In this document: piece after piece, positions 4,870 through 52,252 of the stretch
How the letters are laid out: each line of letters begins with the position of its first letter
Position numbering within the stretch: the first letter of the stretch is position 1
Assembly: GCA_965217115.1 (NCBI GenBank)
Contig: OZ244239.1
Span: 128,001 to 192,000, forward strand
Source: Bdellovibrionales bacterium
Lineage (GTDB): Bacteria; Bdellovibrionota; Bdellovibrionia; Bdellovibrionales; CAYMLA01
DNA: 64,000 bases
Direction of reading: 5' to 3'
Made by a program: the position numbers and the translations under genes
Notes under the pieces: generated by a model
What the model saw: the letters and a program-made list of their open reading frames with translations, nothing else
What the model was told of the DNA's origin: nothing
Database searches by the model: none

Positions 4870-5006
4870 TGCCCCTCCAGATGTCTTAACTTATTTTAAG
4901 CCTCTTTATGGAAAAAATGAAGGTTCTTTGAAAGCATTTTAAGGAGTTAGACCCTGTCTAATGCGGTGAGTCGCTCACATTGTAAGCCCTCCCATCAATC
5001 TGGAGT

Positions 5007-5374
5007 GGTTCTTTGTGATAAATAGTGGAACTGTTCCCAAGAGACCCATCTTGAGGGCTCTCTTTCTAAAACTATCCATGGATAACAGCGTTGTCATACA
5101 TGGAGGTCAGTCATAGAAAGAGATCCATTGACCCATTGATTGAATACGGCCTTTTTTTCTAGAGTCTCTCCCAAAAGAATCCAGTTCTTTTCGGCGAGTT
5201 TGGCTTGGCGACTTCCATTGCATTTCCTTGCAATGGAAGGTGACAAACGGATGTTTGAGCAAGAAAAGGGCTGGATTCTTTTGGGAGAGACTCTAGAAAA
5301 AAAACGGGTCATCAGAAAAAAACTGGCTCCACTATTGTTTGTCATAAAGAACTTATTGTTTGTCATAAAGAATC
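5007..5374 (+). mobile_element. MITE-like non-autonomous element, copy 1 (368 bp)
   Basis: Imperfect TIRs GGTTCTTTGTGATAAATAGTGGA and TCCACTATTGTTTGTCATAAAGAA(TC). Exact 8-bp direct repeat TCTGGAGT at 4999-5006 and 5375-5382. High identity to the copies at 13311 and 51785. Confidence 0.9.
5152..5303 (+). repeat. Long inverted repeat / hairpin inside the MITE
   Basis: 5152-5184 pairs perfectly (33 bp) with 5271-5303 and extends 8 bp inward with G-U pairs. Apical stem CTTCCATTGCA/TGCAATGGAAG at 5212-5239. Confidence 0.95.
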
Positions 5375-5529
5375 TCTGGAGTCTTGGGAAAGTGACAATT
5401 TGGGGCTGTCGAGGGTAGTTTCTTCAAAATAAATATCTGGAGAAGAAATGTCACGGTTTTGAACTGGTATTGAGACTGCATAGTATTGGGAGTTGGAACT
5501 ATTTCTAGAGAGTCTTTGGAGGAAAAACA

Positions 5530-13277: not shown

Positions 13278-13310
13278 ATCTTAACAGAGCATTCTCTCAA
13301 AGAGATTATT

Positions 13311-13832
13311 GGTTCTTTGTGATAAATAGTGGAACTACTCCCAAGAGACTCATCTTGAGGGCTCTCTTTCTAAAATTATCCATGGATAACAGCGTTGTTA
13401 TAGATGGAGGTCAGCCATAGAAATAGAGGAAATCTGTCTAGTTAACGAAGCTCAGTTTTCTAAACCAACCCAGGTTTATTATTATTCGTTTTAAACTTTC
13501 GAGGGAATTTGTCCAGAATAAGTGACCTATTTCTAAACCAACACTTTGGCCTTCCCAGTCTTTTCAGTCTTTTGTACAACCCCCTTTGAAATTACACAAA
13601 AATCCATTGACTCATTGATTGAATAGGGCATTTTTTTCTAGAGTATCTCCCAAAAGAATCTAGTTCTTTTCGGCGAGTTTGGCTTGGCGACTTCCATTGC
13701 ATTTCTCTGCAATGGAAGGTGACAAACGGATGTTTGAGCAAGAAAAGGGCTGGATTCTTTTGGGAGATACTCTAGAAAAAAAACGGCTCATCAGAAAAAA
13801 ACCGGCTCCACTATTGTTTGTCATAAAGAATC
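13311..13832 (+). mobile_element. MITE-like element, copy 2 (522 bp, longest copy)
   Basis: Same TIRs as copy 1; exact 8-bp TSD AGATTATT at 13303-13310 and 13833-13840; contains internal segments missing from copies 1 and 3. Confidence 0.92.
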
Positions 13833-13981
13833 AGATTATTTGTTTTATTTGCTAATTTTTAGTCAATGTGCACTTGTTTGACAGTGTCTAATTTTGAGAT
13901 ATGGATTAATTACTTAGAATGATTAATAAAGTTTAAGGTGTGATTGTGTTTTTAGTGGCATAAATTTTGAAGTAATAGGTA

Positions 13982-51563: not shown

Positions 51564-51639
51564 CATTTAGGAACTCATTTAGGAACTCATTTAGGAACTC
51601 ATTTAGGAACTCATTTAGGAACTCATTTAGGAACTCATT
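51564..51639. repeat. Perfect 12-bp tandem repeat (CATTTAGGAACT)x6 plus CATT
   Basis: Counted directly; ends about 45 bp upstream of tRNA-Val. Confidence 0.95.
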
Positions 51640-51683
51640 GACCTTTTGTGAAGGAGAACTTAGATTCTTCTTAAATCTTGCAT

Positions 51684-51759
51684 GATCCCTTGGCGCAGTT
51701 GGTAGCGCGTCACCTTGACATGGTGAAGGTCACTGGTTCGAATCCAGTAGGGATCACCA
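51684..51759 (+). tRNA. tRNA-Val (GAC)
   Basis: GATCCCTTGGCGCAGTTGGTAGCGCGTCACCTTGACATGGTGAAGGTCACTGGTTCGAATCCAGTAGGGATCACCA. Confidence 0.97.
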
Positions 51760-51784: not shown

Positions 51785-52084
51785 AGTGGGGCAAGTTTTT
51801 TTCTGATGAGCCGTTTTCTTTCTAGAGTCTCTCCCAAAAGAATCCAGCCCTTTTCTTGCTCAAACATCCGTTTGTCACCTCCCATTGCAGAAAAATGCAA
51901 TGGAAGTCGCCAAGCCAAACTCGCCGAAAAGAACTGGATTCTTTTGGGAGAGACTCTAGAAAAAAATGCTATATTCAATCAATGGGTCAATGGATCTCTA
52001 GTGTAATATCAAAGGGAATTGTACAAAAGAGAGCCCTCAAGATGAGTCTCTTGGGAACAGTTCCACTACTTATCACAAAGAACC
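51785..52084 (-). mobile_element. MITE-like element, copy 3 (inverted, one TIR truncated)
   Basis: Ends ...TATCACAAAGAACC (reverse complement of the left TIR) at 52084; full hairpin present; outer ~20 bp of the other TIR and a matching TSD not found. Confidence 0.85.
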
Positions 52085-52252
52085 AGTTAAATGGGTAAAA
52101 ATTTGACGAAAATGGTCACTGTCAATTTATTAGACAGAGTATTTTGTTTAAGACTTAAGTTAATTGCCATATGAATTAGGCATCTATTTTGCTCTATAAA
52201 ATTACTGTATAGTCTAGATGACTTATAATTTTATAACAATAGGATCGTATTT

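Follow-up and report, generated by a model that had tools for sequence, protein, structure and literature searches.

What is the long hairpin carried by a repeated element of a Bdellovibrionales genome, and does some factor read it? The window considered here is a 64,000-nucleotide stretch of contig OZ244239.1 (assembly GCA_965217115.1, positions 128,001 to 192,000 of the forward strand), and it contains a MITE, or miniature inverted-repeat transposable element, in three copies, each enclosing a hairpin. An original prediction, made from the letters of the window, took the hairpin of the first copy to be a candidate mobile structured RNA under selection on one folded strand. Our analysis places this hairpin in a family found across the order, with covarying stems and a fixed asymmetric loop, which is undescribed. 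The MITE hairpin appears to be one copy of an older module, and the loop is a candidate recognition site for a protein acting on transcripts at the 3' ends of genes.

Folding of the window sequence illustrates that positions 5152-5303 (+) form one long hairpin of 152 nt, in which a closing stem (5153-5192 with 5263-5302) surrounds an inner module (5193-5262); 98.9% of cells are paired in an alignment of 34 copies. The anatomy given earlier was borne out: 40-41 pairs make up the closing stem, the inner region is asymmetric and non-palindromic, the apical stem has 11 bp, and a mini-hairpin (CAAAC-GGAT-GTTTG) is present. Within the inner module, a 5' conserved loop motif (GCGAGTTTGGCTTGG, 5194..5208, +) and a 3' conserved loop motif (CAAACGGATGTTTGAGC, 5244..5260, +) lie on either side of an apical stem-loop of 11 bp and a 6-nt loop (5212..5239, +). 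The minimum free energy (MFE) of the + strand as RNA is -93.9 kcal/mol, compared with -39.8 ± 4.1 kcal/mol for shuffled sequences (z -13.1), none of which folded as well in 200 trials. The - strand of the same interval reaches -80.7 kcal/mol (z -15.5), and folds with DNA parameters give -57.6 (+) and -52.5 (-). A sigma-54-like reading of the core (TGGC...TTGCA) was considered and rejected, the spacing being one base too long when judged by eye against the consensus.

Both loop motifs recur well outside the MITE. A 25-nt probe from the bubble matched the window three times (5239 +, 13718 +, and 51855 -, with none expected), and the window hairpins are located at 5152-5303 (+), 13631-13782 (+), and 51815-51966 (-). 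A check of the bubble sequences against the whole genome, as had been proposed, was productive: two 14-mers gave 33 and 21 matches outside the MITE versus 3 and 8 for reversed controls, mostly clustered, and these proved to be mainly other hairpins of the same module together with scattered single matches. The motifs GCGAGTTYGG.TTGG and CAAACG.ATGTYTGA flank at least 64 non-MITE hairpins in the genome, and the two-motif pattern at a spacing of 15-90 nt was found at 95 places, 40 of the MITE type and 55 of another type. A hairpin with a fixed, lopsided inner loop occurs about 100 times in this genome, in both orientations. The non-MITE hairpins share one plan, in which a closing stem of 13-41 pairs with a cluster-specific sequence leads into GCGAGTTCGG[A/C]TTGG, then an apical stem, then CCAAACG[A/C]ATGTCTGAGC; at least 19 closing-stem subfamilies can be distinguished among them. 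Read from the alignment, each MITE loop motif agrees with its non-MITE counterpart (GCGAGTTCGG[A/C]TTGG on the 5' side, CAAACG[A/C]ATGTCTGAGC on the 3' side) at 13 of 15 positions. The 5' motif is nearly invariant among MITE copies, and the G/A-variable base of the MITE 3' motif is the same position that varies in the non-MITE hairpins. The apical stem of the MITE is unlike the non-MITE apical stems in sequence, with pairing retained.

This relationship was also recovered by a covariance model, R1, built from 23 representative non-MITE hairpins and no MITE copy. From one end of the model to the other (positions 1-123 of 123), R1 matched all three window hairpins with scores of 58.1-58.7 bits and E values between 4.5e-12 and 6.3e-12, at 5162..5291 on the + strand (58.2 bits, E 5.7e-12), 13641-13770 (58.1 bits), and 51827-51956 (58.7 bits), and gave no match to the opposite strand of these hairpins at E values up to 1. 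In the genome as a whole, R1 had at least 64 matches of at least 89 bits, along with weaker opposite-strand echoes and some MITE copies; 150 of 938 candidates were scored in this search, and the counts are lower bounds. No homology was detected between the flanks of the MITE and those of the non-MITE hairpins (scores of 28 and 30, with shuffled maxima of 44 and 34).

Evidence for a constrained fold comes from covariation. An alignment of 25 sequences (the 23 non-MITE hairpins and two MITE copies) was assigned an RNAalifold structure of 45 pairs, 31 of which carry compensatory changes. Cells were paired in 94.0% of cases (79.1% in shuffled alignments), the 31 pairs changed on both sides compare with 19.7 ± 2.2 after shuffling, cells changed on both sides numbered 172 (shuffled, 42.6), and the covariation score was 0.478 (shuffled, 0.190). 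None of 500 shuffles attained any of these values, and the slid controls peaked at 47 cells and a score of 0.141. Both sides vary in all 28 closing-stem pairs. The pair of short helices beside the loop shows no both-sided change within this genome; in other genera these inner helices covary (TTGG/CCAA becomes CAAG/CTTG or CAAGG/CCTG), while the unpaired 5' GAG and 3' TGTCYGAG stay fixed. Because the stems covary heavily while the inner loop remains constant, selection on a folded strand is supported at the level of the family. Moreover, the same loop is held by wholly different paired stems in at least 19 subfamilies here and in seven other genomes, which argues for old divergence under constraint rather than for youth.

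In the genomes searched, where stricter filters were used and weak matches may be lost, the matches fall in one order. Among 60 genomes of relatives, R1 matched six, each from a different family of the order (G007, 24 matches; G005, 10; G011, 8; G020, 6; G021 and G016, 1 each). In a further 150 genomes of the phylum, four were matched, all from the same order and including one new genome (G142), and there was no match in any family listed outside the order. Altogether, seven distinct genomes besides its own carry R1 matches, and most of these matches are single hairpins at ordinary gene ends. No Rfam family reached threshold at five non-MITE hairpin loci, and in the window only three tRNAs passed the gathering threshold; the hairpin region attracted only sub-threshold plant miRNA-precursor models, which are generic long-hairpin matches. 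Literature searches on repeats, hairpins, and palindromes of Bacteriovorax and Halobacteriovorax and on MITEs of Bdellovibrio returned no description of these elements, and those on the combination of ISL3, MITE, and hairpin returned plant papers only.

The MITE copies considered alone tell a different story from the family. The differences among the three window copies are exactly as originally listed. The generalization drawn from them, that stem changes all keep pairing on one strand, did not survive the comparison of 34 full-length copies in the MFE structure. At 12 pairs (28 cells), a change in one arm leaves G-U on the + strand; at 8 pairs (12 cells) it leaves A-C on the + strand, which is G-U on the - strand, and at 4 pairs (8 cells) a transversion mismatch. 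A ratio of 12 G-U to 8 A-C pairs is no strand bias. Disruptive changes are therefore nearly as common as wobble-preserving ones, the outcome that had been named in advance as refuting the claim. Compensated changes affect 4 pairs and 12 cells, the cell count being reached by 0 of 500 shuffles and the pair count by 48 of 500 (slid controls, 0-3 cells), and each compensated pair also occurs half-converted, on either arm. When the 37 distinct variants are counted once, they cost the fold as much as random substitutions do on either strand (P 0.74 and 0.92). An apparent preference for the + strand in a copy-level simulation (-88.3 versus -85.7 simulated, 0 of 60) was set aside, since it disappeared under this counting; it arose because a few variants occur in many copies. 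A post-hoc split, on which we do not rely, gave P 0.007 for + over - among shared variants and a reversed trend among private ones. The bubble is identical in the three window copies, as had been stated, and genome-wide this is the one stretch to stand apart, with variation at 2 of 30 columns in hairpin positions 42-71 and at 33 of the 122 remaining hairpin columns (Fisher P 0.016). Nucleotide diversity is 0.037 in the hairpin, about 0.10 in its immediate flanks, 0.025 in the left end of the element, and 0.040 in segment 45-112. The MITE copies alone do not demonstrate strand-specific selection; the observation was real and over-read, and the idea of selection on a folded single strand finds its support in the family and not in the copies from which it was first drawn.

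Strand preference and genomic context were compared for the module as a whole. Of 61 distinct hairpins in the genome, 51 have the more stable fold on the + strand (mean difference -6.4 kcal/mol; 214 versus 98 G-U pairs), as do 9 of 11 hairpins from other genomes. A co-oriented gene lies on the 5' side of 53 of 64 hairpins in the genome, and a convergent gene lies on the 3' side of 43 of 64, its stop codon often only 0-35 nt away; 15 of 26 clusters are located between convergent genes. In other genomes, all 11 hairpins adjoin a gene end on at least one side: five start within 52 nt of a co-oriented gene end, six end within 38 nt of a convergent one, and three fill the entire convergent gap.

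Several further features of these loci were recorded. An opposite-strand gene has its stop codon 0-35 nt from the end of the last hairpin in 21 of the 26 clusters. The non-MITE hairpins have recurrent flank motifs in their own genome (CTGTTCCCAGTC upstream and TTTGCCCAAATC downstream) that are absent from the other genomes. Five non-MITE hairpins at C1:351545-352342 make up a head-to-tail array (period about 168 nt) that has nothing in between, and similar bare arrays are also found at C1:117953-118449 (period about 187 nt) and 716896-717838 (period about 273 nt), the periods ranging overall from 168 to 274 nt. Three hairpins at C1:427494-430382, 148-149 nt long, carry an extra 32-nt hairpin in the apical loop, which indicates that this loop tolerates large insertions. 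About 13 clusters of non-MITE hairpins resemble co-oriented arrays separated by cassettes, an arrangement that the MITE copies do not show. In some arrays, one to three unrelated accessory genes separate co-oriented hairpins; among them are genes for leucine-rich repeat, ankyrin, and FG-GAP repeat proteins, for a LysR regulator, and for a methyltransferase, as well as orphans.

Our preferred explanation, held with a probability of roughly 45%, is that the module is a candidate protein-recognized cis element in transcripts at the 3' ends of genes. It would be an older, lineage-specific hairpin module in which a long closing stem opens into a fixed asymmetric loop, with 2-3 nt opposite 6-7 nt, and then continues through two short helices to an apical stem. 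The fixed loop would serve as the recognition site for a protein reading the folded strand, and the module may stabilize, process, or stop transcripts, as proposed by analogy with REP/BIME, ERIC, and Correia hairpins. A cis-acting role at 3' ends seems most likely because the modules sit just past gene ends and often fill convergent gaps. In this genome, one module is enclosed by ISL3-like inverted ends, as an element that has multiplied to about 40 copies. The MITE copies would be passengers, being young, still foldable, scattered in both orientations, and decaying at random.

A number of observations weigh against this explanation. The closing stems alone have no significant G-U excess (subfamily means of 19.2 G-U versus 13.4 A-C; 9 subfamilies versus 5, P 0.42), so most of the strand asymmetry resides in the conserved core and is perhaps a single inherited feature. 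The module marks gene ends and its context does not pick a strand, with co-directional contexts in this genome splitting 3 versus 6 by cluster. The MITE copies likewise have no orientation preference for the + strand as sense (by crude open reading frame [ORF] calls, + is sense in 5 and - in 13 co-directional contexts; 10 are convergent and 6 divergent). Because a T run precedes the hairpin on its 5' side and an A run follows on its 3' side, the structure does not have the form of a canonical intrinsic terminator. Functional bacterial RNAs seldom have perfect stems of 28-41 bp, which are typical of DNA palindromes and folded-DNA recombination sites, and the arrays and hairpin-separated islands of accessory genes suggest events at the DNA level.

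These last points lead to a competing explanation that we regard as possible although not probable, namely that the hairpin is a folded-DNA recombination site. A single-stranded or cruciform form would be read by a recombinase, in the manner of attC or Xer hairpins, so that gene modules are inserted, duplicated, and lost, with the MITE spreading further sites. Such events would fit the co-oriented arrays, whose hairpins either recur every 168-274 nt or are separated by one to three unrelated accessory genes, as well as the long imperfect hairpin with its fixed asymmetric loop, bulged base, and one favored strand, and the two partial MITE-type hairpins that surround 1.75 kb with two small secreted-protein genes (2002820-2004772). 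However, no integron integrase was found in the genome (best TIGR02249 match 64.4 bits, against a cut-off of 265), and its three tyrosine recombinases, one truncated resolvase, and one rve gene, with no IS110-type recombinase, include none beside an array. The GTT/AAC boxes are reversed relative to attC and fall within the hairpin, away from its base, the conserved part is central and not basal, and in other genomes the hairpins are mostly single and at ordinary gene ends. A more specific form, in which the lopsided loop is the docking site of an enzyme on the folded strand and the hairpins make up an integron-like cassette system lacking an integron integrase and seeded by the MITE, is distinctly improbable. 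The resolvase-family match (C1:1448809-1449039) extends no further than position 76 of a 145-position profile, from its start, in an open frame of 136 amino acids and is probably a remnant.

A functionless, selfish DNA palindrome, in which paired changes are by-products of young copies, template switching, and conversion between copies, is a further explanation that we regard as improbable. The MITE copies are 93-100% alike, their unique variants disturb the fold no less than random changes would on either strand, and every compensated pair also occurs half-converted on either arm. The commonest variant, A to G at hairpin position 86, occurs in all three length forms of the element, which suggests conversion or recurrence, and the diversity of the hairpin is near that of the left end and of segment 45-112. 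Nevertheless, such a palindrome leaves the same loop in at least 19 stem subfamilies and in seven other genomes of several families unexplained, and this reading may apply to the MITE copies only, with the module itself being functional. The hairpin is also unlikely to be a stand-alone RNA gene. The suggestion that the MITE gave rise to a regulatory or guide RNA (6S-like, bridge or guide, or a small RNA processed by RNase III) drew on the stem-bubble-stem layout, and the + strand does fold 13 kcal/mol better than the - strand. The fixed loop could also form an invariant tandem G-A/A-G arrangement (5' C-GA-G, 3' U-GUYY-GA-G) reminiscent of the kink-turn, in which a 3-nt bulge is followed by tandem G-A and A-G pairs (PMC5435971); the bulge here would be 4 nt instead of 3, and no L7Ae-family protein was found in the genome. 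Further arguments against a stand-alone RNA are the absence of any Rfam family at threshold, of any called promoter-like or terminator-like site in or beside the hairpin, and of any IS110-type recombinase, the partner of bridge RNAs (PF01548, 0 matches in the genome), as well as the presence of about 100 copies in both orientations and bubble 14-mers that match mainly hairpins of the same module, the other matches being scattered single ones. The 6S-type, bridge or guide, and small RNA proposals thus found no support, and we consider an RNA gene of this kind very improbable.

Several known systems resemble the family. The attC sites of integrons are imperfect hairpins of 57-141 nt in a folded single DNA strand, with unpaired spacers and extrahelical bases, arranged in co-oriented arrays behind cassettes, and their consensus is RYYYAAC at the 5' base and GTTRRRY at the 3' base. 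Here, GTTYGGC precedes GCCRAAC on both strands, the boxes fall within a long closing stem for which covariation backs another register, and the stems are far longer, in addition to the missing integrase and the central conservation. The bcr1 repeats of the Bacillus cereus group are MITE-like, about 155 bp long, and have a conserved predicted RNA fold with compensatory changes among copies; they occur in an unrelated organism and are not known to be related in sequence. REPs are 20-40 nt long and tied to RAYT (Y1) transposases, and REP/BIME sequences stabilize upstream mRNA, whereas the hairpins here measure 83-150 nt and no Y1 transposase was found (PF01797, 0 matches in the genome). Correia elements duplicate TA at their target, unlike the 8-bp duplication seen here. 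REP/BIME sequences are described as multi-copy extragenic palindromes at gene ends that are often in arrays and bind host proteins (PMC2817692), and the hairpins studied here are similar in being multi-copy palindromes at gene ends, often in arrays.

The closest parallels to the carrier are mobile elements. Correia elements (CREE/NEMIS) of Neisseria are reported to be transposase-less intergenic elements of about 100-150 bp with inverted repeats that are co-transcribed, that form an RNA hairpin which RNase III binds or cleaves, and that can bind IHF and create promoters (PMC2649163). The MITE described here is likewise a small transposase-less element with inverted repeats. The Correia hairpin, however, is formed by the element's own terminal repeats, whereas the hairpin here is an internal module apart from the terminal repeats that also exists outside any MITE and in other genera. 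A MITE mobilized by ISL3 in Microcystis aeruginosa PCC 7806 has ends starting GGCTCTTCG and 8-nt direct repeats, as do ISL3 elements according to the same study, about 30 copies, and a stem-loop fold, and is transcribed through when within a gene (PMC11448079). The ends here are similar, starting GGTTCTTTG (GGCTCTTTG in one copy), and the duplications are also 8 bp; cognate ISL3 transposases are present in the Microcystis genome and, by PF01610, none here, and no separately conserved module is reported for the Microcystis element.

Interspersed hairpin repeats of bacteria are usually dismissed as selfish palindromes. Here, an asymmetric loop is kept while the stems are rewritten, across about 100 copies in one genome and several families of one order, and no described RNA family, integrase, or transposase accounts for the hairpins. 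Judging from sequence comparison, a fixed loop with rewritten stems would mark a site that is read in folded form by some factor. A transposon with a picked-up module would then be an example of a functional hairpin spreading through a genome, and R1 offers a direct means of tracing the partner protein and of marking such elements in the genomes of relatives.

The element that carries the hairpin is a transposase-less ISL3-like MITE with inverted ends and 8-bp target duplications. The genome (2.17 Mb in one contig, 39.6% G+C) contains 41 MITE loci of about 210-520 bp that are 84-100% identical and whose inner ORFs are palindrome artefacts only, and hairpins of the MITE type comprise 34 full-length copies and 8 partial ones. 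The element is bounded by imperfect inverted repeats, which start GGTTCTTTGTGA. The end pattern (left end GGTTCTTTGTGATAAATAGTGG, with its imperfect inverse at the right) has 58 genomic matches versus 0 for a reversed control; a script located both ends at 25 of 36 loci examined, the remaining 11 lacking an end by this pattern. The 8-bp duplication is perfect at 10 of the 25 two-ended loci and has one mismatch at 4, and 2-7 of its 8 positions differ at another 10. There are three length forms, all retaining the ends and the hairpin: one of 346 nt, a long form of 413-521 nt with extra sequence after position 118, and a short form in which position 44 is joined to 113 and which is followed by a second partial hairpin at four loci.

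Copy 1 in the window (5007..5374, +) begins with its left inverted end (GGTTCTTTGTGATAAATAGTGG) at 5007 and has a right end that is tandemly duplicated (22 nt, 5353-5374); its 8-bp target duplication, TCTGGAGT, at 4999-5006 and 5375-5382, is perfect when the duplicated right end is counted. Copy 2 is a long form of 522 nt (13311..13832, +) with a target duplication, AGATTATT, at 13303-13310 and 13833-13840. Copy 3 (51785..52085, -) lacks a right end and adjoins a tRNA gene (51684-51756). The search for an autonomous parent element, which had been proposed, turned up none: PF01610 found no ISL3 transposase in the genome, and transposases of the IS256, IS4/5, IS200, and IS110 families were also not detected there. 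The single rve gene is far from any MITE end. Searches with the whole MITE as DNA gave no match in 40 relatives, and 400 genomes from the phylum yielded nothing beyond 20-50 nt fragments at chance level. When the MITE ends were sought by exact scanning of 185,579 species genomes, there were two matches, both within ORFs of unrelated metagenome-assembled genomes and close to the number expected by chance, and an exact 30-mer of the core matched neither the species genomes nor metagenome contigs.

The possibility that the hairpin is itself a nested MITE was rejected, as no duplication surrounds it and no copy of the outer element lacks it. At C1:2002820-2004772, two partial MITE-type hairpins (positions 1-130 and 81-152) enclose 1.75 kb with two small genes of 160 and 155 amino acids that have signal-peptide-like starts, and the sequences just outside the two hairpin halves are inverted repeats of each other. 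This split locus was likewise rejected as the parent element, given that it holds two small secreted-protein genes and no transposase.

Some minor features complete the description. The long form occurs at ten loci with inserts of 66-174 nt, and its insert in the window (13428-13592) adds about 165 nt between element positions 118 and 114. A second short repeat, at C1:1971320-1971390 and 2041717-2041790, has only the 25-nt left end in common with the MITE and is unrelated thereafter; about 70 nt are common to its two places, and no right end was seen. Just past the tRNA gene that adjoins copy 3, the - strand has about six tandem copies of a 12-nt unit (GAGTTCCTAAAT; window positions 51575-51655).

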